Notes under the pieces: model-generated
Database searches by the model: none
What the model saw: only the letters and a program-made list of their open reading frames with translations
Told to the model about the DNA's origin: nothing
From: an uncultured Candidatus Saccharibacteria bacterium
GTDB lineage: Bacteria > Patescibacteriota > Minisyncoccia > UBA6257 > Colwellbacteraceae
Assembly (NCBI GenBank): GCA_964559765.1
Contig: CAZLHU010000003.1
Location: 1 to 42,226 of the forward strand
Direction of reading: 5' to 3'
Length of the DNA stretch: 42,226 bases
Program-made: the position numbers and the translations under genes
Part shown: positions 6,005 through 25,787 of the stretch, piece after piece
Layout: each line of letters starts with the position of its first letter
How positions within the stretch are numbered: position 1 is the first letter of the stretch

Positions 6005-7585
6005 CTAGCAACTCCCCTGACAGAGCTGCAGGCCCGAGCTTGATGCGGTTACATCAGTTTCGCTCTGGTACGGAGACGGCGACTGGCAGCTTGACGTGGC
6101 TGAAACGGTCGACGTTGAGATCGATCCCGACCACGACTGCTGCACACAGACCTCATTCCTCCATCTGGTTATATATTCCGGAAGGACAAGTGGCGTTATG
6201 CCATTCGAACTGACGGTGACGGTAACGAGTTCCGTTGAAGGGTCTATGTTTCCACCAGACGTTACGCAAGTAGTGGTCGAGGTACCTCCACTATCACTCA
6301 CTCCTGTTATGTTATTGGTCGAAGTTGCGCGACATACATTTTGCACGGTGAAATAGCGTGAAAAAGTAGCGGTGTTCAATGTTTTTATATCGGTTCCAGA
6401 AGCGATTGTCCACGACCCGCTCGTAGTCGTGGCGTAATAAGTATTTGCACCTCCACCAGTAGTAGTGACGTAGGTAATTACAAGCTCTCCAGCGCCTCCA
6501 GTGCCTCCATGCGAATTTCCAGCGCCGCCTCCTGCGCCAGGCTGACCCCCGTTTCCGGCAGTAGTTCCGCCCTCACCCGCATTGTCTCCACCACCGCCGC
6601 CAGAGTCAGAACCAGAACCATTTGTCCCGTTTTGAGCCGGGTTACCGGCAGCTCCGCCAGTCGCTCCGCCTGAGCCATTGGCGCCATTTAAATTTGAAGG
6701 AGCGTTATTCCCATTGCCAGTTGCGCCCGCTGATGATCCGCCGCCGCCATACTGGTTCGGATCAGCTCCGTTAGTCCCGGTTTGGATCGTTCCCCCGGTA
6801 CCCGCGGCCCCACCAGAATATGGACTGGAACCGCCGCTTGTGCTGTTGCTTCCCGTATTTCCAGATCCGCCGCCGCCTCCGCCGCCATAATATCCGCCAT
6901 ACCCCCCGCCTCCCGTTCCTCCAATTGAACTAGTAGCAGCGGTGGCGGTAGGCGTCCAAGCACCGGCACCGCCGCCTCCTGATGCAATATACGTCATACC
7001 GCTTACCGTAACCGATGTAGAACCTCCGCCTCCGCCGCCGGAGCCTAGAGCGTTACCCCCTGTCTCGAATGAACCATTGCCTCCAGACCTATAACCAGAA
7101 CCCCCAGCGCCTCCCGCAGTTGCGCCCGTTCCTCCACCTCCTCCGGATGCAATTATATAAGTGATATTATTACCCGGCGTTACGGCAAGGCCCGTTTCCG
7201 TCACATAGGCACCGGCGCCGCCGCCTATAGAGCTGAAAGTGGCACCTCCTCCGCCGCCTCCCCATAATTGGACCTGAACGGAGTTAACTCCTGCAGGTAC
7301 CTGCCAACTTCCCGAACCCGTAGTTGTTATGACAACCGTTGAAGTAGACGAACCCCCGCTTCCGCCGCCGGTTAGACTGGAAACGTTCTGCCATTGCTGG
7401 GTCGCAGCGCCAATCACCCCGGCCATCTCCTCTTGGGCCAACCCTAGAGCCGAATTATTGTTTGACGACGACTGATTGCCCTCAAGTGAGGCGTAGATAA
7501 GGCCGGCGCCCAAACCTAAAACTATCACAGCCACAGATACGGTTATAAGTATTTCTATAAGCAATTGTCCCGAATTATTTTTCAT
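6005..7585 (-). CDS. PilV-like minor type IV pilin with inserted glycine-rich domain (526 aa)
   Basis: Class III signal KNNSG|QLLIE with E5 and hydrophobic helix; about 300-aa Gly-rich block in the middle; RYFTVQNVCR...DPST..VTVTV...EYITRW pilin C-terminal part. Confidence 0.8.
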   Translation of the reverse strand: MKNNSGQLLIEILITVSVAVIVLGLGAGLIYASLEGNQSSSNNNSALGLAQEEMAGVIGAATQQWQNVSSLTGGGSGGSSTSTVVITTTGSGSWQVPAGVNSVQVQLWGGGGGGATFSSIGGGAGAYVTETGLAVTPGNNITYIIASGGGGGTGATAGGAGGSGYRSGGNGSFETGGNALGSGGGGGGSTSVTVSGMTYIASGGGGAGAWTPTATAATSSIGGTGGGGYGGYYGGGGGGGSGNTGSNSTSGGSSPYSGGAAGTGGTIQTGTNGADPNQYGGGGSSAGATGNGNNAPSNLNGANGSGGATGGAAGNPAQNGTNGSGSDSGGGGGDNAGEGGTTAGNGGQPGAGGGAGNSHGGTGGAGELVITYVTTTGGGANTYYATTTSGSWTIASGTDIKTLNTATFSRYFTVQNVCRATSTNNITGVSDSGGTSTTTCVTSGGNIDPSTELVTVTVSSNGITPLVLPEYITRWRNEVCVQQSWSGSISTSTVSATSSCQSPSPYQSETDVTASSSGLQLCQGSC

Positions 7586-8134: not shown

Positions 8135-9349
8135 TCATTGGATCTTGCCGATGAGGCTGTAAATAGGCAGCAATACAGCCACGGCGATCCCTCCCACAGT
8201 AAGACCCATGAACAGTATAAGTATCGGCTCGATAAACGCAGTCACATCCTTGAGCGAGTCAGCCACTTCTTCGTCGTAGAACTCGGAGAATGTGCTAAGA
8301 ACCTTTTCCAGCGAACCAGACCTTTCTCCGACATTGATCAAGCTAGTCAGAAATTGCGGGAACAGTTTTCCGTGCGACGCAAGCGCCATATTCAGCGGAA
8401 CGCCGTTCTTAACCTGAACGATCACATCCGTTACCGCTTCCCTGTAATAGACATTGCTGACCGAATCGGCCGACAGGTTCAACGCCTCGATTATAGGCAT
8501 GCCGCTGGAGATCAGGTTCCCCAGAGTCCTAGTGAACCTGACCAATGCGATCTTCTTCATCAAACCCTTGATTATCGGTGTATGCATTCCCACAGCGGTA
8601 AATAGCTTCTGCCCCATGACGGTTTTCCTAAAATACACGAAGAACCAGGCTACAAAGAGTATGGCTATTATATCCAAAGCCGGACTGTAGAGCACGATAT
8701 GACTCAGGAAGATTATAAATAGAGTGATCCAAGGAAGCTGGTAGCCCGCTTGGGCAAAGGCCACAGTAAGCCTAGGAAGCACGAAGAACAGAAGAAGACC
8801 TACGACCAATACGGCGGCACAGATCAAAATGACGGGGTAGGCCATCGCCGCCTTTACTTTTTTCGACAGGTCGTAATCCCTAGACAGCTGCTTTCCTAGG
8901 TCGTCGAAGACCGCATCAAGTTTACCCCCGACCTCTCCCGCTTTGATCATGCCCACGAATATCGGCGGGAACACCTCTTTCATCTCCGAGAAGGTCGCTG
9001 AAAGCGACTGCCCGTTCTGCAGGTTATCCCTGGCCTTGGTGAGCAATTTCCTCATTATGTCCTTATCCGCGTCGGCGATAAGTATGTTTAGGGCCTCTAT
9101 TATCCCGAGACCGGCATGCAAAGCGGCTGAGAGGTTTCGCACCAAGGCGACCTGATCCAGCGGAGTGACCTTCTCAAAAAGGTTGGAAGACAGGTTCATC
9201 TTGCTGATAGCCACGGTCTTTTCTTCAACTGAGACGGGTATCAGGCCCTTTTCCTGCAGATATGTGACGACCGTCTTTTTGTCCGGCGCGTCATAATCGC
9301 CCTCCTCTATCCTGCCTGATTTATTCGATGCCTGGTATCTATATAGCAT
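8135..9349 (-). CDS. pilC: Type IV pilus platform protein PilC (T2SS F family, 404 aa)
   Basis: Duplicated T2SSF domains: AGEVGGKLD and VGERSGSLE, AMAYP, IEPILI motifs, three TM segments. Confidence 0.95.
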   Translation of the reverse strand: MLYRYQASNKSGRIEEGDYDAPDKKTVVTYLQEKGLIPVSVEEKTVAISKMNLSSNLFEKVTPLDQVALVRNLSAALHAGLGIIEALNILIADADKDIMRKLLTKARDNLQNGQSLSATFSEMKEVFPPIFVGMIKAGEVGGKLDAVFDDLGKQLSRDYDLSKKVKAAMAYPVILICAAVLVVGLLLFFVLPRLTVAFAQAGYQLPWITLFIIFLSHIVLYSPALDIIAILFVAWFFVYFRKTVMGQKLFTAVGMHTPIIKGLMKKIALVRFTRTLGNLISSGMPIIEALNLSADSVSNVYYREAVTDVIVQVKNGVPLNMALASHGKLFPQFLTSLINVGERSGSLEKVLSTFSEFYDEEVADSLKDVTAFIEPILILFMGLTVGGIAVAVLLPIYSLIGKIQ

Positions 9350-9370: not shown

Positions 9371-11083
9371 TTACTCCCTGACCACTCGGACGATTTCCTC
9401 TATCGTTGTGATTCCTTTCTCAACCTTAGTCAACCCATCCCTGAACATGGTCACCATGCCATTTTTTATCGCCGCGGTTTTTATGTCATTTAGCCCGGCT
9501 TGTTTCACTATTAGCTCTCTTATCTCCTCTGTAATCTGAAGAAGCTCGAATATGCCCACCTGCCCCTGGAATCCAGAATTGCCGCATACCTTACAGCCCT
9601 TGCCTCGATACATCATCTTAGGAACGCTTTCTTTGTCGATATCACCGGACAATTCCAATTGGGTCTTTACTAAATCTGCTATATCCTTCGTCGTCTTATA
9701 GGATTCGATGCATGAAGTGCATATCCTCCTGACCAGACGCTGTGCTAGGACTATGTTCAACGTCGATGCGAGCAGGAAAGATTGGGCTCCCATATCCGTA
9801 AGCCTGGGTATCGCCGAGGCGGCGTCGTTGGTGTGCAGGGAAGACAGCACAAGATGCCCGGTCAACGCAGATTGCACGGCTATCTCGACCGTCTCATTGT
9901 CACGAATTTCGCCGATCATGATAATGTCCGGGTTTTGCCTCATAAGACTTCTCAGGCCATTGGCAAACGTTATCCCGGCCTTAACATTGACTTGGGTCTG
10001 GTTGACTCTGGGGATCTCGTATTCTATAGGGTCTTCAACGGTCACGATGTTAACCTCCGGCTTATTGAGCATATGAAGAATCGCATAAAGCGTGGTCGTC
10101 TTGCCGTGACCAGTAGGGCCCGTCACCAGGAACATCCCGTGTGGTTTTTGTATTTCCGCATCGATTATCTTCGCCGCTTCGGGAGAGATGCCCAGCTCCT
10201 CGAAAGAAAGCGGTCTCGTGAGACTTTTTAGGAGCCTCATCTCCACCTTCTCCCCGTTCATCACCGGCATTATATTCACCCTGAGGTCGATCATGCCCTT
10301 ATCCCCGACCTCGAATCGGAAACGTCCGTCCTGGGGAACGCGGTGCTCATCGATCCTAAGACTGGCCAAAACTTTGACCCTAGCCACCAATATGGGCTCG
10401 ATCTCCTTGCTCAAGGTGGATATCTCGTGCATTATCCCATCGATGCGGTATCTTATCACGACCTCGTTCTGCAACGGCTCAAAGTGGATGTCGGAAGCGT
10501 TCAAATCGACGCCGTGTTCGATGATGCTGTCCAATATAGTGACGATCGGAACCGCTTCGGCCAGCTTGGCCAAATCGGCCTCGCCGCTTGCCGAGGCGAA
10601 TTTCTGCACATTCTCATTTATCAGTTGATTGAACTCACTGCCCACCTTCTGCTTGTACTGATTCAAGCCATATTTTAGGCTTACGGAACTCGTAAAATAG
10701 GGCTCGACCCAGGCGCCGAGATTGGCCCTCAGATATTCAAGGGTCTCGTAGTCCAGGGGGTCGGACATAGCGATCTTATAGACCTTCCTGTCCGCATCGT
10801 ATCCGAATAGGACCATCTTTTTCGCTTTGGCCGTAGCCTCCGGAATTAGATTAAGGACGTCTTCGGGAATAGTGACTTGCTTAAGATCGATGCCGGGAAG
10901 ATTGTAATAGCCCTCCAGGAGCTCCAGCATGTACTCCTCGGTTATCTTGCCTAAGCCGATAAGCACGTTGGCAATGGTCTGGCCCGACCTGTCCGATTCT
11001 TCTTTGGCCTCGTTAAAATCATTTTCGGTAATGACTCCGGATTTTAATAAGACATCTTTTAATTTTTCGTCGAAGATGGCCAT
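9371..11083 (-). CDS. pilB: Type IV pilus assembly ATPase PilB (GspE family, 570 aa)
   Basis: ASDIHFEP, PQDGR, Walker A GPTGHGKTTT, TVEDPIE, RQNPDIIMIGEIRD, TGHLVLSSLH, AQRLVRRIC..C and GC..C zinc motif. Confidence 0.95.
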   Translation of the reverse strand: MAIFDEKLKDVLLKSGVITENDFNEAKEESDRSGQTIANVLIGLGKITEEYMLELLEGYYNLPGIDLKQVTIPEDVLNLIPEATAKAKKMVLFGYDADRKVYKIAMSDPLDYETLEYLRANLGAWVEPYFTSSVSLKYGLNQYKQKVGSEFNQLINENVQKFASASGEADLAKLAEAVPIVTILDSIIEHGVDLNASDIHFEPLQNEVVIRYRIDGIMHEISTLSKEIEPILVARVKVLASLRIDEHRVPQDGRFRFEVGDKGMIDLRVNIMPVMNGEKVEMRLLKSLTRPLSFEELGISPEAAKIIDAEIQKPHGMFLVTGPTGHGKTTTLYAILHMLNKPEVNIVTVEDPIEYEIPRVNQTQVNVKAGITFANGLRSLMRQNPDIIMIGEIRDNETVEIAVQSALTGHLVLSSLHTNDAASAIPRLTDMGAQSFLLASTLNIVLAQRLVRRICTSCIESYKTTKDIADLVKTQLELSGDIDKESVPKMMYRGKGCKVCGNSGFQGQVGIFELLQITEEIRELIVKQAGLNDIKTAAIKNGMVTMFRDGLTKVEKGITTIEEIVRVVRE

Positions 11084-11127
11084 TTAATGTTGATAGATAG
11101 GCTGCCGCAAATGATCGCCTAGTTTTT

Positions 11128-11136
11128 ATTATATCA
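11128..11136 (-). promoter_or_regulatory. Extended -10 promoter (TGATATAAT) for pilB-pilC-pilin genes
   Basis: Exact TGnTATAAT on the minus strand 44 nt upstream of the pilB ATG. Confidence 0.6.
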
Positions 11137-11242
11137 GATAATCGGCCTATTAAGGACTGTGCGCCAAAAGTTAAATTAGATGGGTCCTATAGCCTAGGAG
11201 TCCACCTATAAAACCAAGGGGCGGTATCGTCACTTATACGAA

Positions 11243-11974
11243 CTACCAAACGGTACTTGTTGAAGGAAACAGTCTATTATCAGATCCGACTTGGTAGTAA
11301 TAAATATTCGGGGCACCGTCTTTGGCCGGCAGCCCACCGCCTGGGGCGGATGCTCCATACAGTGCGCTCTCGAGGACGGCTGCGATCTGGTATGCGTGGG
11401 CCGGCTTGGCGCTGTTTGAAGTTTGCGACTGGCAGACATAACGGTAGACCAAATCAGTACTGGCTGGCGTGGCATTAACGTTGGCTATGGTATTGACCGG
11501 GTCAACTGGCAGGTTAGATATAGGCGAGCCGCCGCTCAGACCAAGGAAGTTGACTGGGATCCAGCCCGTGCCGTCAACCGCAGTATACGTGGTCGAAGCC
11601 GCTTCAAAACAGAAGTTGGCCGGAAGAGTGCTGCTCACTGAGTCCGTGCCCATGTATATGGTCGCTCCACCGGTACATGTCGGAGTGCTGGTCGTATAGC
11701 CAACGCTGTATGCGATCGGTGTGGTTCCGCTTCCGCCCAAACATAGGTTACTAGTGCCGCCAAGTTGAGGAGTAGTGGTATTGGTCAGATATATGCCTAA
11801 AGCCGTCTTCAGGGTATTGAGGTCGGACACGCGCTGCGAGTCCCTGGCCCTCTTTAAGGTTTCGGCCGGATCCAACACGATGATCAATAGGACCGCCAAT
11901 ACGGCGATGATGGCGATGACTATCAAAAGTTCCAACAAAGTGAAACCTTTCTTGTTTGTATTTGCTGCGTTCAT
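11243..11974 (-). CDS. pilA: Major-pilin-like type IV pilin, downstream copy (243 aa)
   Basis: NKKG|FTLLELLIVIAIIAVLA, RDSQRVSDL, DGTGWIPVNF, NLPVDP motifs; four Cys. Confidence 0.85.
   Translation of the reverse strand: MNAANTNKKGFTLLELLIVIAIIAVLAVLLIIVLDPAETLKRARDSQRVSDLNTLKTALGIYLTNTTTPQLGGTSNLCLGGSGTTPIAYSVGYTTSTPTCTGGATIYMGTDSVSSTLPANFCFEAASTTYTAVDGTGWIPVNFLGLSGGSPISNLPVDPVNTIANVNATPASTDLVYRYVCQSQTSNSAKPAHAYQIAAVLESALYGASAPGGGLPAKDGAPNIYYYQVGSDNRLFPSTSTVW
11353..11974. repeat. 622-bp direct repeat, copy 1 (identical to 12207-12828, offset 854)
   Basis: No difference found on line-by-line reading; antisense ORFs in the track are also identical at offset 854. Confidence 0.9.
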
Positions 11975-12046
11975 AAACTATGCAAGTTAACTGTTAATAT
12001 AATGATATATCTAATCTGTGTATTTTAAAAAAGGTTATCAACAGCC

Positions 12047-12083
12047 AAAACAAAAACAGCCTCGGATACGCCGGGGCTGTTTT
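12047..12083 (-). terminator. Intrinsic terminator between the two pilin copies
   Basis: Minus strand AAAACAGCCCCGG-cgtat-CCGAGGCTGTTTTT-GTTTT: GC-rich stem with one mismatch plus U tract. Confidence 0.75.
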
Positions 12084-12105
12084 GTAACAATTCGATTTAG
12101 AGATA

Positions 12106-12828
12106 CTACCAAACAGTGCTGGTCGGAGGGGTCAACCTGCTGTCGGATCCAACCTGATAATAGTTGGCATTTGGTGCGCCATCTTTAGATGCCAAACCAG
12201 TTGTTCCTCCATACAGTGCGCTCTCGAGGACGGCTGCGATCTGGTATGCGTGGGCCGGCTTGGCGCTGTTTGAAGTTTGCGACTGGCAGACATAACGGTA
12301 GACCAAATCAGTACTGGCTGGCGTGGCATTAACGTTGGCTATGGTATTGACCGGGTCAACTGGCAGGTTAGATATAGGCGAGCCGCCGCTCAGACCAAGG
12401 AAGTTGACTGGGATCCAGCCCGTGCCGTCAACCGCAGTATACGTGGTCGAAGCCGCTTCAAAACAGAAGTTGGCCGGAAGAGTGCTGCTCACTGAGTCCG
12501 TGCCCATGTATATGGTCGCTCCACCGGTACATGTCGGAGTGCTGGTCGTATAGCCAACGCTGTATGCGATCGGTGTGGTTCCGCTTCCGCCCAAACATAG
12601 GTTACTAGTGCCGCCAAGTTGAGGAGTAGTGGTATTGGTCAGATATATGCCTAAAGCCGTCTTCAGGGTATTGAGGTCGGACACGCGCTGCGAGTCCCTG
12701 GCCCTCTTTAAGGTTTCGGCCGGATCCAACACGATGATCAATAGGACCGCCAATACGGCGATGATGGCGATGACTATCAAAAGTTCCAACAAAGTGAAAC
12801 CTTTCTTGTTTGTATTTGCTGCGTTCAT
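12106..12828 (-). CDS. pilA: Major-pilin-like type IV pilin, upstream copy (240 aa)
   Basis: Same prepilin motif and body as 11243-11974; own extended -10, A-rich leader and terminator. Confidence 0.88.
   Translation of the reverse strand: MNAANTNKKGFTLLELLIVIAIIAVLAVLLIIVLDPAETLKRARDSQRVSDLNTLKTALGIYLTNTTTPQLGGTSNLCLGGSGTTPIAYSVGYTTSTPTCTGGATIYMGTDSVSSTLPANFCFEAASTTYTAVDGTGWIPVNFLGLSGGSPISNLPVDPVNTIANVNATPASTDLVYRYVCQSQTSNSAKPAHAYQIAAVLESALYGGTTGLASKDGAPNANYYQVGSDSRLTPPTSTVW
12207..12828. repeat. 622-bp direct repeat, copy 2
   Basis: Identical to 11353-11974; identity stops exactly at the start codon. Confidence 0.9.
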
Positions 12829-12875
12829 CTTTTTTCTTTTCTTTGTTTGTTTTGTTTAGACTTTTATATGCTCTT

Positions 12876-12884
12876 AGTATAGCA
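12876..12884 (-). promoter_or_regulatory. Extended -10 promoter (TGCTATACT) for the upstream pilin
   Basis: TGn-TATACT 47 nt upstream of ATG 12828, followed by an A-rich untranslated leader. Confidence 0.6.
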
Positions 12885-12912
12885 AATACACCTGTCTTAA
12901 TCGAAATTTAGC

Positions 12913-12921
12913 TGTGGATAA
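12913..12921. promoter_or_regulatory. Consensus DnaA box (TTATCCACA on the minus strand)
   Basis: TGTGGATAA on + strand in the pilin upstream region; a 1-mismatch version lies at 12035-12043. Confidence 0.4.
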
Positions 12922-12967
12922 CGCCGTATCTACCCCTTAAACATATACCCAAGACGACTAAGGAACG

Positions 12968-14200
12968 CTACTTCCTTACGAACGCTTCCTTAGGTGAAAG
13001 CGAGCTTGCGCGCCGCGCTGGGATAAATCCGGCCAGTAGCCCGATTACAGCCGAAAAACCGACAACCAGACCGAGGAACCATATCGGGGATACGAACAGC
13101 GTAAAACCCGTACCTCCGTAGTGCTCAGCCAGAAGACTGATAAGTATGTTAAGCAACTCCCCTATACCCACGCCGATCGCGATTCCAATCACCCCTCCCG
13201 CAAGGCCCATGATTAACGATTCCATTAGAAATAGGCTGCGGACGTCGCCGTCAGTAGCCCCGATGGCCTTCATGACTCCGACCTCATACGTCCTTTCCAG
13301 GAATCCGACGATCATCGTGTTGAACATTCCGATGGCTGAAACGATTAGCGCAGCCACTCCGAAAATACCAAGGATGATCGTTATGATATTCGTCACCTGT
13401 TGGGCCTGCTGCACCAAATCAATGTGGGCGGATATTAAGAATCCCTGCCCAGTCAGCTTGCCCCGCAAATTTCCCAGTTCGGCCTCACTCGTCGCCTCCG
13501 CGTAAATCTCCTTGAAATACGGCGGGGCTTGTTTGAACGCAGTATTTGAAACCATGATGGTCGGCGATTCCGCATTATTGACCACAATTCCGGTTATAGG
13601 CATGGCGGTAGTGGAAGTTACTACGTAGGTCGAAGTGCCGTCGGCGGACGTGTAGAAAACGGTAACGCTTACCATCTTGCCAAGCGTTGAGACGCTGGCC
13701 GGAAGATTGATCAGGCGAAGCGCCTGGTTGGAAATCACGGCTCCTCCCGACTGGCCAAATCCCTGACCGATATCCGGCAAATCACCGGACAATTTGAAAT
13801 AATTCGCATCGGCTACGTCAACCAGCACCAGCCCCGAGGAACCTTGGGACATCACCGCACCCGGAAATTCAGCCACTGGGCTGACCTCTTTCACCAGAGG
13901 CAATGCGCTGGTGCTGCTAACCGTGGCCTGGGTAATAAGCAGATCACTGTCCGAGGGGTAAGAAGCCTCTATCGTGACGAGAGATTCGGGCGTTGTTATA
14001 AGTCTTCCGAGAAGAATGCCCTGCAATCCGTATCCGAGAGAGACGAGGACCACAACCGTTGCGATTCCCACCGACGTTCCTAGAATGGTGAGTATCGTCC
14101 TAGCGGGCTTTGCGAAAAAACTCCGCATGGAAAGGCGTATGAGGTCGCGCACGCTTAGTCGATTCGACACCTTATCTACTATTATTTCTTTCTGATCCAT
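12968..14200 (-). CDS. MacB/FtsX-like ABC transporter permease (410 aa)
   Basis: RTILTILGTSVGIATVVVLVSLG N-terminal TM, extracytoplasmic domain, GMFNTM...ERTYEVGVMKAIGA, C-terminal GFIPARRASSLSP. Confidence 0.9.
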   Translation of the reverse strand: MDQKEIIVDKVSNRLSVRDLIRLSMRSFFAKPARTILTILGTSVGIATVVVLVSLGYGLQGILLGRLITTPESLVTIEASYPSDSDLLITQATVSSTSALPLVKEVSPVAEFPGAVMSQGSSGLVLVDVADANYFKLSGDLPDIGQGFGQSGGAVISNQALRLINLPASVSTLGKMVSVTVFYTSADGTSTYVVTSTTAMPITGIVVNNAESPTIMVSNTAFKQAPPYFKEIYAEATSEAELGNLRGKLTGQGFLISAHIDLVQQAQQVTNIITIILGIFGVAALIVSAIGMFNTMIVGFLERTYEVGVMKAIGATDGDVRSLFLMESLIMGLAGGVIGIAIGVGIGELLNILISLLAEHYGGTGFTLFVSPIWFLGLVVGFSAVIGLLAGFIPARRASSLSPKEAFVRK

Positions 14201-14212
14201 GTTTTATGAAGA

Positions 14213-15514
14213 TTATACGGGAGAAAACGATCCGAGCTGCGGATGGCCATTGTTAAGTATGAAATCAAGCCTCTCTTTTATCCGCTCGGCCGTGTGTATC
14301 GAGAAGCCCAATCCGGCCTTGCTGCGAGGCAGGTTGAGTATTTCGCGCATGTCATCCGATGAGATCACCCCGCGAATGCGGTCGACTATGATTTCCCGCA
14401 GCTGCACGCTCTGAAGATCGGACAGTTCGCCCCTGTAATCGCTGACCAGCCAGGACTTGAGTTTCTCGACGTCATCGGCGAGAGGGGCCTCTGGATGCGT
14501 TTCAAGCTCTTTATACAGGCTCTCGACATCCCGTTTTTCTTCGATCACTTCTTCCACCCATTGGCTCACTTTGTTCGCCTTCTGCTTCCATAGCCCGAGG
14601 CCGTCGGAGTGCCACGGCCGACCAAGCATCATGCGGAATAAGTCGGCGTCTATCTTGTTTTCCAATCGCTGGCTGAGGAAGAACTCGAAGCGCTTTAGTT
14701 CCGGAGCCGAATATCCCCGAAGGAACAGGCTGGATAGCGCCTGAGCGGTCAATTGAGTCTTAGATAATTCCGGCGAAAGCTGGCTGTAGAGCCGCTGCGA
14801 AATCGTCTGGCCCACCTCCTTTGGACTGGAAGATTTATCCTCGGTTATAACTCCGTCTTTTATGAAGAATATTTTCTTGGCGTCCCTCAAACTCCACGCC
14901 TCGTGGGTGACCATAATGACCGTACGCCCGTCTTTTTCGTTCAGCTCCTTTAGGAAGGCAAGCACGGTCTCGGCGTTGGTGGAATCAAGGTTGCCCAGCG
15001 GTTCGTCGGCGACGATTATGGGCGGGTTGTTCGCCAGAGCCCTAATGATGCCGACCCGCTGCTGCTGTCCCCCGGACAGCTCGTCCGGGAAACGGTCGGC
15101 AAGCTGTTCAATGCCGACACGCTTGAGCAGTTCCATCGCCTCTACCTTGGCACGCTCCTGTGAAACCCCTAGGAACGACATCGGCAGGATTATATTTTGG
15201 ACAACGCTTAGCGATGGAATCAGGTTGAATTGCTGGAAGACCATGCCCACGCCCACCTGCCTGTATATAGCCAGCTCCTGCTTGGAAAGAGTGGAGATGT
15301 CGCGTCCGTTAATTATGATCTTTCCGTCCTGGCTCTGCTCTATTCCTGCGATCAGATATAGAAGGGTCGTCTTCCCGGAACCGGAAGCGCCGAAGAAAGC
15401 GACATACTCCCCGGGGTTTATGTCGAAAGATATGTCCTTCAGGGCAAGGTATTCCGATGGCTTGCCGTGCTCATACCAGAAGTTTACGTTCTGCAGTCGG
15501 ATTATTGGGTCCAT
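14213..15514 (-). CDS. MacB/LolD-like ABC ATPase with about 200-aa C-terminal extension (433 aa)
   Basis: Walker A GASGSGKTT, VFQQFNLI, LSGGQQQRV, ADEPLGNLD, VTH; extra sequence after about aa 235. Confidence 0.9.
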   Translation of the reverse strand: MDPIIRLQNVNFWYEHGKPSEYLALKDISFDINPGEYVAFFGASGSGKTTLLYLIAGIEQSQDGKIIINGRDISTLSKQELAIYRQVGVGMVFQQFNLIPSLSVVQNIILPMSFLGVSQERAKVEAMELLKRVGIEQLADRFPDELSGGQQQRVGIIRALANNPPIIVADEPLGNLDSTNAETVLAFLKELNEKDGRTVIMVTHEAWSLRDAKKIFFIKDGVITEDKSSSPKEVGQTISQRLYSQLSPELSKTQLTAQALSSLFLRGYSAPELKRFEFFLSQRLENKIDADLFRMMLGRPWHSDGLGLWKQKANKVSQWVEEVIEEKRDVESLYKELETHPEAPLADDVEKLKSWLVSDYRGELSDLQSVQLREIIVDRIRGVISSDDMREILNLPRSKAGLGFSIHTAERIKERLDFILNNGHPQLGSFSPV

Positions 15515-15528
15515 ATCGGTTATGCGAT

Positions 15529-15957
15529 CTATTTGGCGAGGAGGCGGCTGACGAGTTCGACTATGTCCTTGGGCAGATTCTCTCCCTTGCGCAGATATAT
15601 GTCGACGCCAGCCTCCTTGGCTTCGGCTTCAAATTCCTTTTCTGCGTGGTCGGAAAGCATGACTACCCTCGTCTCAGACATTAGCGGATCTGCTTTGATA
15701 CGCTTCACGAAATCGAAGCTGTATCGCGGGTCGATGACGGTTCGGCCGCCGACCTTCTTCGGCAGGGATAGGTCGAGGAACACTATGCTGGGTCGCGAGG
15801 CGGGATCGACGACTGTGCGTTCGGCCGCATCCAGATCCGCAGCCACGGAAAGTTCGCAGCGGTCTTCGAACCCGTAGATCCAGAATATGTCATGGAAATA
15901 TATCCTGATTACTTCGTCATCGTCGACGATCAAAACCTTTGTCTTCTTGTCTGCCAT
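15529..15957 (-). CDS. Stand-alone response-regulator receiver (142 aa)
   Basis: VLIVDDD, IVFLDLSLP (phospho-Asp), MLS, YLRK; no output domain; start overlaps the upstream stop (TAATG). Confidence 0.85.
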   Translation of the reverse strand: MADKKTKVLIVDDDEVIRIYFHDIFWIYGFEDRCELSVAADLDAAERTVVDPASRPSIVFLDLSLPKKVGGRTVIDPRYSFDFVKRIKADPLMSETRVVMLSDHAEKEFEAEAKEAGVDIYLRKGENLPKDIVELVSRLLAK

Positions 15958-18900
15958 TACGGTTGCACCTTCTGCAGGAATTGGAATGTGTTTTCGAAAT
16001 TATTGAGTATGACGTCTAGAATCGACTGGGATTGCTCGGAGACCACTATTGTCTGCGTCGGATAAACCGCCGTATTGGACGCCTGATCGGTCGACGATAT
16101 CTGCACCCGGTACACCGCCCCCGGAGTCAGGTTGGGCACGATGACGACGTGGGTCAACGTGTAACTGGCAAGGTCCTGAATTGTATGGGAGAAGGTCTGC
16201 TGCGTCGAACCCACGCCTGAGTCGTAGTTAACTATCGAATTGGATGGTTTGTCGGTGCTCCATCCGACTATGGCTTCGGCAACATTCGGCGTCTGAGGGT
16301 CGATGATGGTCTGAATCTTTATATTGGATATCTTCGGGGGCGTCGTGTCCTTCAGTGTGGTAACTTTTATATTGTTCGCTGCGCTAACCGGATTGCCCTC
16401 GGCGGTTTCCCCGGAAGCCGAAACCTGATAAGTCTCCGCCGATGGGAGGTTCTGGACCTGCACGTCATGGATCGTGACTGGCGTATTGTCGGTTATTGTC
16501 TGCACCGTCCCCGTCTTCACATCCTCGTATTGCACCACCGAGCTGGTCAGCATGTCCGTCACCCACGTGACATTGAACCCGCTGGTCGTGACATTGGTCA
16601 CGTCCGCGGTCACCTTCGAGGCAGCCGTCGTGAACGTTATATCCTTGCTCTTGCCAAACACTCCGGGGATGCTGAATGATTCCGCCATGATGTGATAGGT
16701 CGTGTTCGGAAGCAAATCAGTCAGATTTAAAACGTGGTCGGTTACCTTGTCGTTCACATCGGATGTCTGGGAAGGATACGGGGTCTGTGAGGTCGGGTCG
16801 TAATTGCTGCCGGCTGCATAGTATAGGACTGAGTACGAATTTATATTTGTCGTCCAGTCTACCTCGGCGCTGTTTTCGGTTACATTCGACACCGCCGGCG
16901 TGCTCAGGAACGGCGGCACAAGGCTCGGCAGCGCCGAAGCTATGCTGTTCTCGATCTCCTGCTGGAACTGATATGCGGTCGTCGGGCTGGTCGATGCCGC
17001 TGTGAGATATTGCGTCATAAAAGTGCCGGTGGAGGAAGTAGCCGTGTTCCCGGCGTTGTCTATCGCCTTTACGTAATAGCTGTAGTTCGTTCCCATCAGC
17101 AACCCGCTCAGAGTTATGGCGTGGGATGTGAGGAATGTCCCGTCAGCGGCGGCATAGCCGAAGTTGGTTCCGGAACCGTATTCCACGAACCCTATCGCCG
17201 ATTTTGATGTATTAAAGGAAACGGTTGCATTGAACGCGGTCGAGGTCGCGGTCACGTTGGTGATCGTCGGCGGAGTTATGTCCGGGGCCGGCGCGCCACC
17301 GCTCGAGCTGACATAGATATACGTCTGCTGGCTACCAGAAAGCGTGGAGAAGGAACTTTCTCCAGAAGACCCCTCGACTCCTATGTTCGACTTGGAATGG
17401 GCGGTGAGATAGTAGGTTGTCGACGCCGTAAGTCCGGTCAGAGTAACGGCATGGTATGTCGTAAGAGTCGGATCTTCTGTCGTGCTAGAGGAATATTCGC
17501 CGCTCTCGATCCCGTACTCGACCCAGCTGGTCGAAGGCTTGTCGGTATTCCAGGTGACTATGGCCGAGGTCTCGTTCATTACAGGCACTTTGACATAGGA
17601 TAGGACTGGCGGCGTATGGTCGGTCGTAGTGAATGTGTAATATTCGTTGAAATTGTTGTCGATGTGCATTATGTCGTTGGCGTCGTCAGACTGCAGGTAG
17701 TAGTAATATGTAGTACCTGGAATCAGGCCATCAATTGAAACCGTATGCTGGAATGGCGCCCCTCCACCGCCTACGAACGTGGACGTACCGGTTTCAGTCG
17801 CACCGACTCCTCCGCCGATCTGCGTAGGGTCGAAATAGTAAACATAGGAATCCGAGTCCATTGTGGTGTCCCAAGTCACAATAGCCGAAGTGTCGCCGAC
17901 GTATGTCGTTGTGGCATCAGAGAATACCGGAGCCTGCGTGGTAAAGAAGAGGTCCGAGGACGAAGCCGCGTTTCCTGCAGCGTCCACAGAACTGGCCACA
18001 TAGTGATACATGGTGTCCGGGGTAAGTTCGGTCAGGAATATCTGGTGCGCCGTGACCAAGGTGGAGCTCGATATACTGTCAGGATAAACTCCGGTGGAAG
18101 TGCCGTAAGACACCTCTGTGTCCGAAGGCTTATCAGTAGTCCAGGCGATACCCGCCGTGTCGCCGCTCAGGAAAGAAATATTGACGTTGGTGATCTGTGG
18201 AGGCTGACTGTTGGTTGTGGCGAATTGGTAGTATGCCCCGCCGTTCTTATCGACCGATACCAGGCCAGACGCATCTGTCGACTGTACGTAGTAATAATAT
18301 GTCGTGTCGGGGACCAAATCCGGCAGCGACACCGAGTGGAAGTAGGGCGATGACGATCCCGAAACAAGGTCGGCGCTTCCGGCCGACATACTGAAAGAAT
18401 CGGTGGACGTGGAATAGAACACATAGGAGTCGGAATCGGTGTTTGTATCCCAAGTTACGACGGCGCTCGTGTCTTGCGGGCTTGCCGAGACCAATGTTAT
18501 TGCCGGGCCGCCGCCGTTTCCAGTCGAGGTTACGAACACTTGGGGCGTGAAGGCCGAGATATTCCCATTTGTGTCTTCCACCCTCATCTCATATGTATAG
18601 GCCGTCGACGGCATAAGCCCCGTGTCTGTATACGAGGTCATCCCCGCGGATGATATGGTCGCAAGCGGCGCAAAGGCCCCGCCCCCGACCGAACGGTATA
18701 TGTCATACTGCTTGAAATCAGGCATGGTGCTGGTCGCCCAAGACACGTAAGCGCCATAAGCTCCCGTTTTAAGGTTGGTGATATCCTTGACCACCAGGCC
18801 TGACGGCATGGCCGGACCGGAGAACGTCTGGATATAATCGTTGCCGTACACGTCTTCCAACTCGACATAGACAACAGGAGTGCTAGTGGTGGTACTGGCG

Positions 18901-21900
18901 TTTCCGAAAGACAGGGCATGGGCCGATGTGTTTGTGGCATCCCCGCCGACCGCAACGAACGGCAATATCGAATCCGGCGTCGAAGCGGTGAACGGCGAGC
19001 TAGAAAGCCGATACGAGAAATTGGCATCGGCCGAGAAGTTGAAATTGACGATCCCCTGGCTGACGTCCATCGTGAGTGAGTTTACGGCCGGAGGATTGGT
19101 GTCTAGGACGAACGGGACGCTTGTTGCCGTTGCAATATGGTTGGCCAACTGATGGTCGTCCAGCGTTACGAGAACTTCCGTGTCAGTTGAATACTGCTGC
19201 CCCACGTCCGCCGACGAGTTCCAGACGATAGTGGATGTCGGAGAATAGTCGCCCTGAGGAAGCATGGAAATGTCTTCGGTCGGATCAGGAGTAATAAAGG
19301 TATTCATTGGGTTCCAGGTACTCCCGCCGTTAAGCGAATATTGATAGCTTGGCGTTACGGTCGATGTTGCGTGGCCGTTGGCAGCGTTGTCCGTCAGCGA
19401 ATCTGAATCCATGCCCGAAAACTGGAACTGGACCAGATCGGGAGTCGAAGAGGTCCCGTGCTGCTCTAAGGCGGTAACACCAGTTCCCCCGCCGATATCC
19501 GCATTGAACTGCGGCGGAGCGTTGACGACGTATTTCACCGTCACATTGGATACGGTTGGCGTTGCGGCGCCAGTCGAACTTTCAGCGACTTTATACTGCC
19601 AATACTGCGCGCCGGTTTGAAGCGAAGAAGGGATAGCCACCCCCGAACATGCAACTACGGTCGACGAACCGTCCGGAGTCGTTGCGCATCCAGTGGTCGA
19701 GTCCGTAAGGCTGACCCAGCTTGCGTTGGATAAATCAGACGCGTTATCGCCTACGCGCACAGAAAGAGCTACCCCGGTGTTGGTCGGCACCGTCTCCGTC
19801 CAATCAATCTCCCCCACCGCATCGCTCGGATCGGTCGTGTTATACGGAGAAGAAATAACAGCTCCTGGCAGATATGCGTTATACGATATCGTCACGCTGT
19901 TTAAGGACGGCGTTATCGTAGTATTGGTCGTTGAAAGTGTGGCTTTATACTGTATGTAAGCATCTCCGTTAGTCACGCACCCGCCCGACGCGAGCGGTTG
20001 GCCGTTCGATATCTGCGAACAGGTCGACCAGTCGGGGGCATCGCTTGTATCTGGGTCGTTGAACGATCGGGCCTCCATAGTGAGGGTCTCGCCTCCGGTT
20101 TCATTCCACTGCAGGCTCCCCCATGATACGGAATCGCCTATGTCTATCGGCGAAGACGTGAAGGTGCCCGTCGATGGATATGCGCTGAAGTCGAAACCCC
20201 AGAAATTGGAGCTGCCGTCGCCGGGTATGGCATAAAGATAATTTCCCGTCCCCGGATAGGCCAACAGACTCGAATACCCGCCGCTTGTTATATTGCCGGG
20301 CGCGTTGGGCATGATGTCCCAGGTATTATCGGACACGGTATAGCGCCACAGCGCACTGCCGCCGCCCTGAACCGCAAATATATAATCGCCGTCATTGGGG
20401 TAGATAAGGGATCCGCCAGATACGTCACCGGGGGCATTAGCCATCGAAGACCAGGTGCCGGCGGAAATGGAATATCGGTAGAAATTAGCGGTGCCGTCGC
20501 CGGGAAAGGCGTAAATATAGTTGCTATCGGGACCGTTAGTGATCTGGGGATATGCGCCGATGGTCGGAGGCGTTGGCAAGCCGCCCCACCCGCCGCCGAT
20601 AGAATATACCTGGAACGTGTCTTGGGCGTATCTAGTGTAGTAGTCAAAGAGACCGTAAATGTTGTTGCCGGACCCAGGGTATGCGAGCGAACCGGCAATA
20701 TTACAGAAATAACACTCGTTCGGACTGGCTAATTGGATCGTGGAATTTTGAGATATGGAATAGCCGAAAAACGGGGCCTGATATGTGTTTATCCTAGCGG
20801 AGTTGCCGATTACCGGCGGAAATACATATATATTGCCGTTGACGGTCACCGCGCCGCCGGCGTACGGGCCGCCGCTTAGATAATTCCACGAGCCGTTGTC
20901 ATAGTCCCAATTCGGAGCATAAAGATTGTTGTTGTATCCGGACACAAGGTTTGTACTATTGCCCGGTATGTTGTTAACGGAGCTCCAACCGTTATCTGCG
21001 AGCGGCGAGTAGCGATAAAGAGTGGTGCCTCCACCGCCCTGCAGGGCATAGAGATTTCCATCGGGGCCCGGCGCAATGGTTCCCCCGCCGCTAAATCCGC
21101 CCGGGGCATCCGTCATAGTGGTCCATGTGCCCTGTGATATCGAATAACGCCATATGGCATTGCTACCACCTCCTTGTAGGGCATAAATATAGTCGCCCGT
21201 GCCGGGGTAGGTGCAGCTAGCGCCATCGCCAGGCGTGCCAGGTGGAGAATTTTGAAAGCCCGTCGTTCCGTCAGCGCCTCCGTCAAATCCATATATGCCG
21301 CCTTTGGCGGTGCAGAAACTATAACCAGTAGTATATTGCGAACGATTGTAGCCTACCGGATAAGCACTCCATGAATCATTGGATATGTTGTAGGCCATAA
21401 CGTTTTCATCGTATGGGTCTCCGTAAAGAACCGCATCGGCATAGATAACACCTCCGCCTGAATAGGTGAGGTAATAATTATAATTCCATTCCGATTGGCC
21501 AATCGGACCAAAAGCACTCAAAGTGCTCCATGTCCCTTGTGAAATCGAATAGCGCCAAAATCCCGTACGAGCCAGACCAGATGGAGCCGCATAAATATAG
21601 TCATCTCCCGTGGAGATGAGATCATTCTCTCCTATACTGCCGGGTGCGTCCGGCATTTGAGTCCACGAATCACCAAGGACGGAATAACGCCAGAGCGAAG
21701 CGCTGCCCGCACCTTGTGAGACATAGATATAATTGCCATAGCCCGGATAGACCATCTGCGCATCCTCACCAAAAGCCACGGGGGTGTTTCCTATAGTCGT
21801 CCATGGCGGAGGCGAAGGATAGGCAGCGAGAATAACGCTCGACTGAGTACTGGATCCGTTCACTAAAGTATTTGAGAACGCCCCGGCATTGAAGTCGGCG

Positions 21901-24745: not shown

Positions 24746-25225
24746 TCACTGAGATATTTCCTGCCAAGTCGTGGTCGCTATCTGCCCGTACTCATTGGGC
24801 TGGTCTAATATGACGTTGACCTGGACTTCGATGCTGTTATTAGCGACGGCACCAGTCGAATTAATTACTATAGGGGTGGATGTCGATCCAGTATATCCTG
24901 GGCCATTAAGAACACTCACTGTGGCGCAGCCTGCCGGCGGCGTTCCGCAGCCATTGGATACGAAAGGTATCGTATAGGGCGTGCTGGTCGGTGCCGAATA
25001 TGTATAGTTAACGGCAAGCTTTTGCAGGGCGTCCCTGGCCCCGGCTTCAGCGTATTCCTGTGCGGCCACCGTATTGGATTGATTGTATGAACTGGAAGAT
25101 TCATTCAAAGACAAAGCGGTTATGCTGATGGCGACGATCAATATCAAAAGGACTATGACCAATATCGTCGTTAAAGAGGCCACTCCGTCAGAATTTGATT
25201 TATATATGCCCGCTTTTTTAATCAT
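24746..25225 (-). CDS. PilX/GspK-like minor pilin lacking E5 (159 aa)
   Basis: KSNSDG|VASLTTILVIVLLILIV; A..YAEAGARDAL..L PilX-type helix; INSTG...W.EI C-terminus. Confidence 0.75.
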   Translation of the reverse strand: MIKKAGIYKSNSDGVASLTTILVIVLLILIVAISITALSLNESSSSYNQSNTVAAQEYAEAGARDALQKLAVNYTYSAPTSTPYTIPFVSNGCGTPPAGCATVSVLNGPGYTGSTSTPIVINSTGAVANNSIEVQVNVILDQPNEYGQIATTTWQEISQ

Positions 25226-25253
25226 CTTATTAGCCTTAAATACTGTCTCTGCT

Positions 25254-25781
25254 CTAATGACTCAACTGGAATGTTGTCTGATTGGTCTGTGAATAGCTCC
25301 AGTCCGGACTGGAAGAATTGTACTGCACATTCATAGCCATCTGGACACTGACCACCGTCTCCCCCAGCGTACTGTTTGTATTCTGTATATTCGTGAAATT
25401 GAGGCTGGTCACGACCACGGAGGTGGATGTCATTGGTTCTGAGCTCGATGTGCAGGAACCTCCCGCTTGTCTATATACTACGCCGTTTATCAGACAATAT
25501 GAGACCGATGCCCCGGATCCAGACACGATAGTGAGCGTGCTTGAAGATGTGCCAGCGGCGGATGGAACGGTGACCGTGCTGGCATAGCCGACATCCTGAC
25601 CCACCTTATCCAAGACGAAACGGATATTGGAGTCCACTTCACTGCTTGAAGTTATCTGGCCTATCCCTCTATTAATGGAGGTAAGCGAGGCGACAAGCAT
25701 GACCATGACGATCATAAGTATCGCCACATATATCAGGAGCTCCAACAGAGTAAACCCCTTATTGGACTTAAGCTTTCCCAT
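25254..25781 (-). CDS. PilW/GspJ-like minor pilin (175 aa)
   Basis: SNKG|FTLLELLIYVAIL; N.RF.LDKVGQDV..A; VTSLNFT motifs. Confidence 0.8.
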   Translation of the reverse strand: MGKLKSNKGFTLLELLIYVAILMIVMVMLVASLTSINRGIGQITSSSEVDSNIRFVLDKVGQDVGYASTVTVPSAAGTSSSTLTIVSGSGASVSYCLINGVVYRQAGGSCTSSSEPMTSTSVVVTSLNFTNIQNTNSTLGETVVSVQMAMNVQYNSSSPDWSYSQTNQTTFQLSH

Positions 25782-25787
25782 ATTCTG

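Follow-up and report, generated by a model that had tools for sequence, protein, structure and literature searches.

We found that two tandem pilin genes share a perfectly identical body and carry strongly diverged tails. The best explanation is a second pilin, itself old or imported, whose body was replaced through gene conversion between the tandem paralogues, a reading to which we assign a probability of roughly 0.7. The locus is the usual footprint of such conversion and not a new variation system. Both genes belong to a type IV pilus locus of the window (by which we mean the whole 42,226-nt stretch of DNA analysed), with the order pilin B, pilin A, pilB, pilC and minor pilins:

12106-12828, minus strand: pilin gene B, the promoter-proximal copy, 240 aa; an open reading frame (ORF) with an N_methyl/prepilin domain
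11243-11974, minus strand: pilin gene A, the second copy, adjoining pilB, 243 aa; an ORF with domain matches as in B
9371-11083, minus strand: PilB-type assembly ATPase, 570 aa (T2SSE, 1e-127; MshEN)
8135-9349, minus strand: PilC-type platform protein, 404 aa (T2SSF, 9e-59)

PilM/N, PilO and minor pilins are also encoded in the window. Both pilins have a class III signal, in which the leader MNAANTNKKG, followed by FTLLELL, is short and basic, with Gly at -1, Phe at +1 and Glu at +5, and the matches to the pilin profiles PF07963 (1e-8) and TIGR02532 (5e-8) both exceed the cut-off. In AF2 models of the two isoforms (pLDDT 89.5 and 89.7), strands come after a helix of some 50 residues, and the same fold with an ordered tail is predicted for both. 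A profile search of the PDB matched solved T4a pilins (7tgg, 6xxd, 1oqw) over the helix only. The protein cluster at 90% has A and B as its only members. The best explanation for these observations is that A and B are paralogous, putatively T4a-like major-pilin genes of a Patescibacteria type IV pilus locus.

The preliminary description had reported an identity of 622 nt running from the start codon to ...ESALYG, and the two intervals were found to match exactly:

12207-12828, minus strand: identical body in B, codons 1-207 plus 1 nt; BLAST searches of independent contigs bear this out
11353-11974, minus strand: identical body in A, 622 nt; a contig of another sample (L006) starts exactly at 11974
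12106-12206, minus strand: tail B, 33 codons plus stop; GTTGLASKDGAPNANYYQVGSDSRLTPPTSTVW
11243-11352, minus strand: tail A, 36 codons plus stop; ASAPGGGLPAKDGAPNIYYYQVGSDNRLFPSTSTVW

Counted from the A of the ATG, the genes are identical over exactly 622 nt, and the first base 5' of the ATG already differs. The final residues common to both end at G207. Beyond this point, 33 codons of the tails can be aligned, with a single indel of 3 codons (9 nt). The residue is unchanged at 23 of these positions and replaced at the other 10; just 6 of the 23 also keep the codon, which leaves 17 synonymous differences. Nucleotide identity of the tails is 61.6%, with a longest exact run of 6 nt. There are thus 0 differences in 622 nt of body versus 38 in 99 nt of tail (Fisher p = 1e-36). 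A Nei-Gojobori analysis along the alignment gave no differences in the body and, in the tail, a saturated pS of 1.02 with a dN of 0.20, which bears out the near-saturated synonymous divergence described earlier; the 9-nt indel noted there is likewise present. Between species, the tail has pS values of 0.61-1.03 and dN values of 0.17-0.63; the A-B pS is at least at the level of these, and its dN lies near their low end. The synonymous saturation of the tails thus corresponds to the level between different genera, while the bodies are without differences.

The composition of the tails was also analysed. An excess of synonymous divergence, as from selection against homology, was rejected, because the 6 identical codons at the 23 common tail residues do not differ significantly from the 8.3 +/- 2.1 expected under independent codon choice. 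A foreign origin of a tail as judged by codon usage was likewise rejected, with both tails falling within the null distribution of the window (6th and 27th percentile). GC3 is 0.43-0.45 in the tails versus 0.62-0.63 in the body, a contrast that is uninformative since P0004, which is probably a third paralogue encoded at another site of this genome (65% identity, not homogenised), has the same contrast and three other relatives do not. At the DNA level, tail B matches the tail of P0004 with 72.5% identity over 80 nt (E = 9e-7), so its likeness to the tails of relatives is still detectable; tail A shows just weak similarity to such tails.

An exact repeat of 622 nt is longer than short reads, which raises the question of an assembly artefact: the assembler may have joined two strain alleles of a single-copy pilin end to end, or merged two copies with slight differences into one consensus. 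Every independent contig breaks within the repeat or at its edges, and a few true differences between the bodies, such as isolated SNPs, could have been erased by the bubble popping of short-read graph assemblers. One contig of another sample (L005) covers 284 nt of the B body and has 2 mismatches there (I152R and I139F). These look like errors, because they lie near the contig tip, and I152R hits an invariant residue, I139F being at a family-variable position. Contigs of six other samples match the window with 99.97-100% identity and end or branch at the repeat edges, and in contigs of five other samples (L001, L002-L004 and L005) the spacer joins tail B to a second pilin start. Tail B, spacer and pilin ATG form the sole path in these five samples. 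The locus is carried by the samples JGI 3300042090, 3300041809, 3300017988 and 3300014161, ENA ERZ27249851 and SRA SRR6946416. Since the spacer is entered from tail B alone and exits into a pilin ATG alone, any genome with the spacer has at least two bodies. The B side (U-body-tail B, where U is the upstream region of gene B, in L001) and the A side (spacer-body-tail A-pilB, in L005) were both assembled through, and a step from 0% to 38% divergence cannot arise by collapse. We consider an artefact very improbable, because near-identical contigs from other samples reproduce the junctions between B, spacer and A and are interrupted where the repeat begins or ends; the tandem is therefore genuine, with at least two bodies. 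An 854-nt B-type unit was recovered as a closed cycle in three assemblies, and the number of B-type units may exceed one.

The flanking elements were compared with those of two close relatives that have a single pilin, L009 and L010, whose PilB proteins are 83% and 80% identical to that of the window at the amino-acid level. In both relatives, the one pilin is set between response regulators and pilB. The elements around genes A and B are as follows:

12829-12967, minus strand: ancestral pilin upstream region U, a putative promoter with TTATCCACA, an extended -10-like TGCTATACT and an A-rich leader
12913-12921, minus strand: TTATCCACA motif in the upstream region of gene B
12876-12884, minus strand: extended -10-like TGCTATACT upstream of gene B, a presumed promoter element
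12047-12083, minus strand: intrinsic-terminator-like hairpin plus U-run 3' of gene B; AAAACAGCCCCGGCGTATCCGAGGCTGTTTTTGTTTT
11975-12045, minus strand: AT-rich 71 nt directly 5' of gene A, with no detectable homologue
12029-12002, minus strand: weak sigma-70-like match (TTTAAA-16-TATCAT) within these 71 nt
11159-11242, minus strand: 84 nt directly 3' of gene A, with no detectable homologue or terminator-like fold
11084-11158, minus strand: conserved pilB upstream block, the pilB-proximal half of region D downstream of gene A, with an extended -10-like TGATATAAT at 11128-11136

Alignment of region U with the sequences 5' of the pilin in L009 and L010 gave scores of 23 and 25 versus shuffle maxima of 17 and 15. 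The terminator after B scored 19 against the terminator of the single pilin of L009 (shuffle maximum 13), and the pilB upstream block scored 26 against the pilin-pilB spacer of L009 (shuffle maximum 17); L010 supports these last two homologies weakly. The whole B-A spacer has an RNA fold with z = -2.4. The flanks of A, both upstream and downstream, are no more similar to the flanks of B than shuffled sequence is, and the 71 nt 5' of A have no similarity above shuffles to U, D or the relatives. A homology of these 71 nt to the pilB spacer was considered and rejected, the apparent colinear alignment being within the shuffle range. Gene A with the 71 nt or so on its 5' side and the 84 nt on its 3' side thus forms a unit of about 887 nt between the terminator and the pilB promoter block, two elements that are nearly adjacent in a single-pilin relative. 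Because the upstream region and terminator of B are homologous to those of single-pilin relatives, flank homology identifies B as the resident orthologue in the ancestral position and A as the added gene. None of the relatives compared was found to carry an orthologous A copy. As a separate observation, the TTATCCACA motif is a conserved element upstream of pilin gene B, and a literature search returned no description of it upstream of pilins.

The same end state, identical bodies with unrelated tails, would also result from a recent duplication of the pilin, after which the last 110 nt or so of one copy, plus the adjacent flank, were replaced by a diverged foreign allele that came in with external DNA and recombined homologously. 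No relative was detected for tail A or for its 84-nt 3' flank, as would be the case for imported DNA. Type IV pili have been considered in connection with DNA uptake in this phylum, and a competence assay on a Saccharibacterium is reported (PMC11623550). However, a fresh tandem duplication is expected to leave duplicated flanks, whereas the identity ends at the ATG and the 71 nt 5' of A have no match in U or in the pilB spacer. The right-hand crossover would, in addition, need homology 3' of the tail, and there is none before the pilB promoter block. The number of events needed is at least that of the conversion model, and we regard such a tail replacement as unlikely.

Gene conversion, one of the origins put forward in the preliminary description as the homogenisation of the 5' 85% of old paralogues or alleles, fits best with the saturated tails, the unrelated flanks and the comparable arrays described below. 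We propose that A arose as an old duplicate or an imported paralogue, that its tail and flanks had diverged to saturation, and that the sequence of one body was later transferred to the other in at least one RecA-type intrachromosomal gene-conversion event. Conversion would have extended to the limits of usable homology on both sides, namely the ATG at the 5' side and, at the 3' side, codon 207, where an indel-bearing, family-variable loop starts. The tract would stop at the ATG because the upstream sequences are unrelated, and in the absence of an exact run longer than 6 nt in the tails and of related downstream flanks, a recombination intermediate could not be resolved past codon 207. The outcome would be two isoforms alike but for the C-terminal segment. 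Gene B probably supplies the main pilin, as suggested by its ancestral promoter, conserved upstream motif, A-rich leader and own terminator, and A may be a secondary isoform whose transcripts start at a weak promoter in the spacer or come from read-through. The N-terminal parts, which matter for assembly, are the same in both, and A could therefore co-assemble with B into the same filament.

The isoforms differ by 10 residues and the 3-residue loop indel, all within a structured C-terminal segment, and have in common the leader, the alpha1 helix and most of the head. The last Cys of the pilin is C181, and the variable part therefore sits 3' of the last Cys, as had been noted earlier. Throughout the family, the tail follows the motif LES..YG..KDGxxN..YYxVG, in which D, G, Y and G are invariant, and the predicted structures of both isoforms have an ordered helix and a beta-strand there, with pLDDT 85-96. 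A dN far below dS in the tail indicates purifying and not diversifying selection. These observations suggest that purifying selection maintains the tail as a conserved, well-folded element of the pilin and that it is no free epitope, which speaks against the earlier idea that two alternative C-terminal epitopes have been retained. Of the preliminary interpretation as a whole, the conversion is supported as the best fit and the retained epitopes are not supported, and the picture is refined by the assignment of B as resident orthologue and A as added gene.

A constant N-terminal part combined with alternative C-terminal parts resembles the layout of pilin variation systems, and we therefore looked for a programmed device, be it silent cassettes of the Neisseria pilE/pilS type, an inversion or shufflon, or a diversity-generating retroelement (DGR) acting on the C terminus. 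Both copies are complete ORFs in direct orientation with their own upstream regions. Searches for silent cassettes or extra tails by tblastn and blastn (body, tails and spacer against the window) returned the two genes and two unrelated minor pilins, with no other body or tail fragments within the 42 kb. Recombinase, invertase and reverse transcriptase were absent from the Pfam matches of the 29 scanned ORFs (out of 33 of at least 120 aa that were taken as genes, 17 others overlapping on other frames or strands). No G4 motif (G3+N1-7, four times) was found on either strand of 10500-13500, and no inverted repeats flank the alternative tails, the region near the genes having four weak pairs of 22-27 nt with 70-77% complementarity. 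Of the 38 tail mismatches, 24 affect the third base of a codon and 28 are transitions. An A is present at just 6 or 8 of the mismatches, depending on the copy, unlike DGR mutagenesis. Taken together, a programmed device is extremely improbable.

It is also conceivable, though we think it improbable, that the perfect 622-nt direct repeat is kept as a recombinational switch. If so, unequal exchange between the bodies would delete the 854-nt unit (tail B, spacer and body) and so put the ancestral pilin promoter, with its motif, in front of the tail-A isoform; the alternative outcome would be an amplified B-type unit. Clonal cells would then vary in the pilin isoform that they make or in its dosage, which would be a form of bet-hedging in an epibiotic bacterium, to attach to hosts or to avoid phages, and the closed-cycle contigs of 854 nt plus k from three assemblies would be amplified units and not the result of graph pruning.

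In a survey of the pilin family, at least two tandem copies were found at 32 of 112 loci, some with partial identity blocks. One array (L030) has identity blocks of 176-209 nt at the 5' end, and its copies 2 and 3 are identical over 209 nt from the ATG with unrelated upstream sequences. In L151/L154, the 3' 279 nt are identical, and L155 has an identical stretch made up of 40 nt of upstream sequence and the first 60 nt or so of the gene. The 622 nt of the window are the longest exact block among the surveyed arrays, and the window is the sole surveyed case where the C-terminal tail alone escapes identity. The exact body/tail junction had 0 matches in the metagenome contig collection, a protein-guided scan of metagenome contigs recovered only relatives at 55% identity or below, which were of use to the survey, and the genome contig collection held no close relative, with the best at about 50% identity. 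A literature search returned no paper on gene conversion between Patescibacteria pilins.

To our knowledge, almost nothing is known about how the pilin repertoire of Patescibacteria evolves. A central role in host attachment and exploitation by these bacteria is ascribed to type IV pili (PMC11623550). The locus is a clean example in which resident and added copies can be distinguished and only a short, structured C-terminal segment would have escaped overwriting, and tandem arrays with patchy identity are common in the surveyed pilin family. As exact repeats break short-read assemblies at pilin loci, the copy number and isoform content of pilins in metagenome-assembled genomes of this phylum are probably under-reported.

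Several known systems can be compared with this locus. In Neisseria pilE/pilS, sequence is transferred non-reciprocally among the pilin copies of one genome in a RecA-dependent manner; the donors are promoterless, 5'-truncated silent cassettes, a G4-forming element is needed, and the conversion diversifies the expressed gene, with the disulphide loop among the targeted regions. The window likewise points to sequence transfer between pilin gene copies. Unlike in Neisseria, however, both copies are complete, there is no G4 in 10500-13500, the conversion homogenises, and the divergent part follows the last Cys. In Moraxella tfpQ/tfpI (Piv) and the R64 PilV shufflon (Rci), alternative C-termini are produced by site-specific inversion with a dedicated recombinase. 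A single N-terminal pilin part with alternative C-terminal segments is common to these systems and the window, which, in contrast, has whole-gene direct repeats and no recombinase among the ORFs scanned. Other Patescibacteria arrays have the same protein family, the same position upstream of pilB or in arrays, and partial identity between neighbours.

Deletion of a pilin gene via direct repeats was documented for a cultured pathogen in a 2006 study cited in PMC1978527. There, as here, pilin genes carry or are flanked by direct repeats able to recombine and thereby remove a gene; in contrast to that documented case, the corresponding deletion in the window, leaving promoter, body and tail A, is a prediction only. 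Concerted evolution of tandem paralogues by interlocus gene conversion or recombination is described for the Staphylococcus aureus lpl cluster (Tsuru & Kobayashi 2008, PMC2568036), where a highly conserved block common to the paralogues is the recombination substrate, as it would be here. [quoted passage not shown] Unlike in the lpl cluster, the conserved block spans 85% of the gene and is perfectly identical, two copies are seen, and the 3' end alone varies. The process itself is already known, and the locus is a clean new instance of it.

Two tandem genes, A and B, encode type IV pilins that belong to one pilin family of Patescibacteria:

12106-12828, minus strand: pilin B, complete ORF, 240 aa
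11243-11974, minus strand: pilin A, complete ORF, 243 aa

In the assembled sequence, A and B are identical over exactly 622 nt on the gene strand, counted from the A of the ATG, an identity that holds at the level of short-read assembly, where bubble popping may remove isolated SNPs between the two copies. The first base 5' of the ATG already differs, and the common part (hereafter the body) terminates at ...ESALYG (G207). The tails that follow align over 33 codons plus one 3-codon indel, with 10 residues replaced and 23 in common, of which 17 use a differing codon. Tail nucleotide identity is 61.6%, the longest exact run being 6 nt, and differences amount to 0/622 in the body versus 38/99 in the tail (Fisher p = 1e-36). 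The Nei-Gojobori estimates for the tails were pS = 1.02 and dN = 0.20, and only 6 of the shared residues retain the same codon, compared with 8.3 +/- 2.1 expected from independent draws from the window's codon usage. The synonymous sites of the tails are thus fully saturated. The last Cys of both proteins, C181, precedes the divergent tail. The preliminary description, which had the identity running from the start codon to ESALYG, followed by similar tail proteins on different codons with an indel, near-saturated synonymous divergence and a variable part located after the last Cys, was accurate in all details checked.

Could the tandem be an assembly artefact? Exact-protein look-ups led to contigs from six other samples, all 99.97-100% identical to the window, which meet the repeat as follows:

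L001 (JGI 3300042090): MacB-like gene, region upstream of B, full B, B-to-A spacer and 94 nt of A, then ends
L005 (JGI 3300041809): starts within the B body; tail B, spacer, full A, pilB onwards
L174 and L176: end 98 nt into the body, coming from either side
L006 (SRR6946416): first base exactly at the ATG of A
L002-L004: closed cycles with a period of 854 nt (body, tail B and spacer) plus a k-mer overlap (995 = 854 + 141; 977 = 854 + 123)

Such breaks and cycles are the behaviour of a de Bruijn graph at an exact repeat longer than the reads. The three cycles, from independent assemblies, correspond to window 11353-12828 without upstream or tail-A exits, and could be due to graph pruning at low coverage or to more copies of the B-type unit. 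In independent contigs, tail B is the only entry to the spacer and a pilin start its only exit, so any spacer-bearing genome must contain at least two bodies. The sole hint of any body difference is a pair of mismatches in the B body near the tip of L005 (positions 77 and 117, window 12414 and 12374), which would give I139F at a family-variable position and I152R at a residue that is invariant; errors at the contig end are the likeliest cause.

The non-coding flanks were compared with those of the closest relatives with genomic context, in which one pilin lies between response-regulator genes and pilB:

L009 (GCA_009712145.1): single pilin, P0005, 65% identity
L010: single pilin, P0003, 69% identity

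With the maxima of shuffled sequences as the yardstick, the 139 nt 5' of B are homologous to the pilin upstream regions of L009 and L010 (scores 23 and 25; shuffle maxima 17 and 15), all three having the layout TTATCCACAG ... TTTGCTATA(A/C)T ... A-rich leader. The terminator of the L009 pilin has its homologue in the first ~60 nt 3' of B (19 versus 13), where TATCTC likewise follows the stop codon and a terminator hairpin folds well. Likewise, the last 75 nt 5' of pilB match the L009 pilB upstream block (26 versus 17), which contains TCTGATATAAT, and more weakly resemble that of L010. The 71 nt 5' and the 84 nt 3' of A match neither their B counterparts, nor the relatives, nor any fetched locus. 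Because only a few bases separate terminator and pilB block in L009, A with its private flanks (~887 nt) appears as a unit added between them. The flanks thus identify B as the resident orthologue and A as the unit added between the ancestral terminator and the pilB promoter. The DNA of tail B still resembles the tails of relatives (72.5% over 80 nt with the family pilin P0004, E = 9e-7) and that of tail A does not recognisably do so, which is consistent with B being the resident. In protein sequence, each of the two tails nevertheless has its nearest counterpart in the other (dN 0.20), the tails of relatives standing at 0.27-0.45 from A or B; of all pairs among the five genes compared, P0004-P0003 alone has a smaller value (0.17). 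In the single-pilin relatives the pilin is immediately preceded by the response-regulator genes, unlike in the window (12968-15957), where two genes, one for a MacB/FtsX-type permease (12968-14200) and one for an ABC ATPase that carries a long C-terminal extension (14213-15514), intervene between the response regulator (15529-15957) and pilin B.

We infer gene conversion as the origin of the shared body. A second pilin gene would first have been gained, either through an old local duplication, with tail and non-coding flanks randomised since, or through insertion of a paralogue or foreign allele together with flanks of its own; homologous recombination between A and B would later have copied one body onto the other. 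The edges of the step would coincide with the ends of usable homology. Heteroduplex cannot cross the ATG because the upstream sequences are unrelated, and the 3' edge would fall where a loop begins in which indels are frequent throughout the family; farther on, with exact matches of at most 6 nt between the tails and unrelated flanks downstream of them, no exchange could be resolved. The step from 0% to about 40% difference is abrupt and lacks a transitional zone, which speaks for a single recent event or a few of them, or for a hard barrier, rather than for old tracts forming a gradient. A recent duplication with subsequent replacement of one tail would yield the same picture; however, it leaves the private 71-nt flank upstream of A unexplained and needs a downstream crossover where homology is absent. 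Of the two origins offered in the preliminary description, we therefore prefer old paralogues or alleles homogenised in their 5' part, based on the abrupt step, the saturated tails and the unrelated flanks. Cassette, inversion and DGR mechanisms were also considered and rejected, since their hallmarks are missing. A and B are both complete genes in direct orientation; the window contains no extra pilin body or tail fragments, and Pfam detected no recombinase or RT among 29 scanned ORFs (of 33 ORFs of at least 120 aa taken as genes; the 17 further ORFs in the list overlap these in another frame or on the opposite strand). A search of 10500-13500 on both strands found no G4 motif, and the tail mismatches are mostly third-position transitions.

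Tandem copies are common in the family: 32 of 112 fetched loci with a member have at least two within a few kb, and several are mosaics:

L030 (4714-6551), copies 2 and 3: 209 nt identical from the ATG, upstream unrelated
L030, copies 2/4 and 3/4: 176-188 nt in common
L151/L154 (2239-3573), copies 1 and 2: last 279 nt identical, middle differs
L155 (163-1418): about 60 nt shared at the gene's 5' end, plus 40 nt upstream
L170 (133-1393) and L111/L112: copies 89-91% identical throughout

Exact 5' or 3' blocks of 176-279 nt thus stand beside segments of 50-60% identity in other Patescibacteria, indicating that partial homogenisation of neighbouring pilin genes is recurrent in the family. Among the loci surveyed, the window pair is the most extreme mosaic and the only case in which the C-terminal tail alone escaped. 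P0004 (L007 6001-6723, on the 124-kb contig Ga0455670_0001180 of sample 3300041809) is an orphan pilin, 65% identical to A and B, located away from any pilB, with a hypothetical gene on one side and a gene for a nucleoside phosphorylase on the other. The tetranucleotide correlation of its contig with the window (r = 0.82) equals that among the window's own thirds (0.79-0.84), any other locus reaching at most 0.65. P0004 is a probable third, unconverted paralogue of the same genome, and its identity of only 65% fits conversion limited to the adjacent pair.

Both pilins carry a prepilin N-terminal methylation domain with the leader MNAANTNKKG|FTLLE. AlphaFold2 models of the two isoforms (pLDDT 89.5 and 89.7) have the same secondary structure, and the tail, modelled at pLDDT 85-96 throughout, opens with a loop that contains the 3-residue indel and a helix of one turn (A 215-218, B 212-215); after the KDGxxN loop come a beta-strand (A 227-230, B 224-227) and a C-terminal stretch that is also ordered. 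When 26 and when 121 members of the family are aligned, D, G, Y and G prove invariant or nearly so within LES..YG..KDGxxN..YYxVG. Given these residues, the ordered predicted fold and a dN far below dS, the tail is a conserved structural element under purifying selection, and the earlier notion of alternative C-terminal epitopes is not supported in the sense of a free-standing hypervariable epitope.

B is probably the main pilin: it retains the ancestral upstream region, in which TTATCCACA is conserved and an extended -10-like box is found, has an A-rich leader as its relatives do, and is followed by a terminator of its own. For A, the spacer offers just a weak promoter-like match, an A-rich leader is lacking, and no terminator was found between A and the pilB promoter block; A may be expressed at a lower level or via read-through. 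The two proteins are the same in leader, alpha1 helix and most of the head and differ in 10 residues and a 3-residue loop, so processing and polymerisation should not differ between A and B, and one filament could contain both. Recombination across the 622-nt perfect direct repeat could also delete or amplify the 854-nt unit, and deletion of this unit is predicted to put the tail-A isoform under the ancestral promoter. The perfect TTATCCACA, a DnaA-box consensus 9-mer, lies on the gene strand 5' of the first or only family pilin, in the window at pilin B only (12913-12921, minus strand) and elsewhere at L009 1206-1214, L010 164-172, L011 60-68, L013 3910-3918 and about 30 other loci, about 25-35 nt 5' of an extended -10-like TGnTATAAT. 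It occurs at 34/89 non-redundant first or only copies versus 0/33 later tandem copies (chance ~0.001 per locus); we found no literature tying it to pilins.

Genes for the PilB ATPase, the PilC platform protein and minor pilins follow the pair, and the window also encodes PilM/N, PilO, more pilin-like genes and three giant surface-type proteins. One of these, of 2126 aa, has no Pfam hit and a membrane-anchor-like N-terminal segment, and heads an apparent operon (24746-32168, minus strand) that also includes genes for a pilin-like (25254-25781) and a PilX_N-like protein (24746-25225). Its gene reaches a GC content of 0.62 (28-29 kb), and the product could be a giant pilus-associated adhesin. The other two are encoded at 15957-22160 and 38119-42102 (minus strand); one, of 2067 aa, contains fn3, five purple-acid-phosphatase-N-like repeats and Kelch motifs, and the other, of at least 1327 aa, has TIG-like domains and an N-terminus probably mis-called at TTG. 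A 526-aa glycine-rich protein encoded after a minor pilin gene (6005-7585, minus strand) is likely a large minor pilin from its prepilin-like N-terminus, MKNNSGQLLIEILITV..., which Pfam did not flag. The genes for tRNA-Arg(GCG) (32593-32665) and tRNA-Gly(TCC) (32945-33016) lie in a low-GC gap (0.44) separating the pilus-related block from a two-component/PAS histidine kinase block.

As a case of ordinary interlocus gene conversion, or concerted evolution, in tandem paralogues, the locus is tidy and well bounded and will not surprise specialists; our literature search found no description of gene conversion of Patescibacteria pilins. As a practical corollary, pilin loci in such genomes break short-read assemblies. 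Non-reciprocal recombination between pilin copies is the sole likeness to Neisseria pilE/pilS, and inversion systems and DGRs have nothing mechanistic in common with A and B. The closest bacterial parallel that we found is the lpl cluster of Staphylococcus aureus (PMC2568036), where recombination proceeds through a conserved block inside the genes and the unit '3' part - spacer - 5' part' remains linked.
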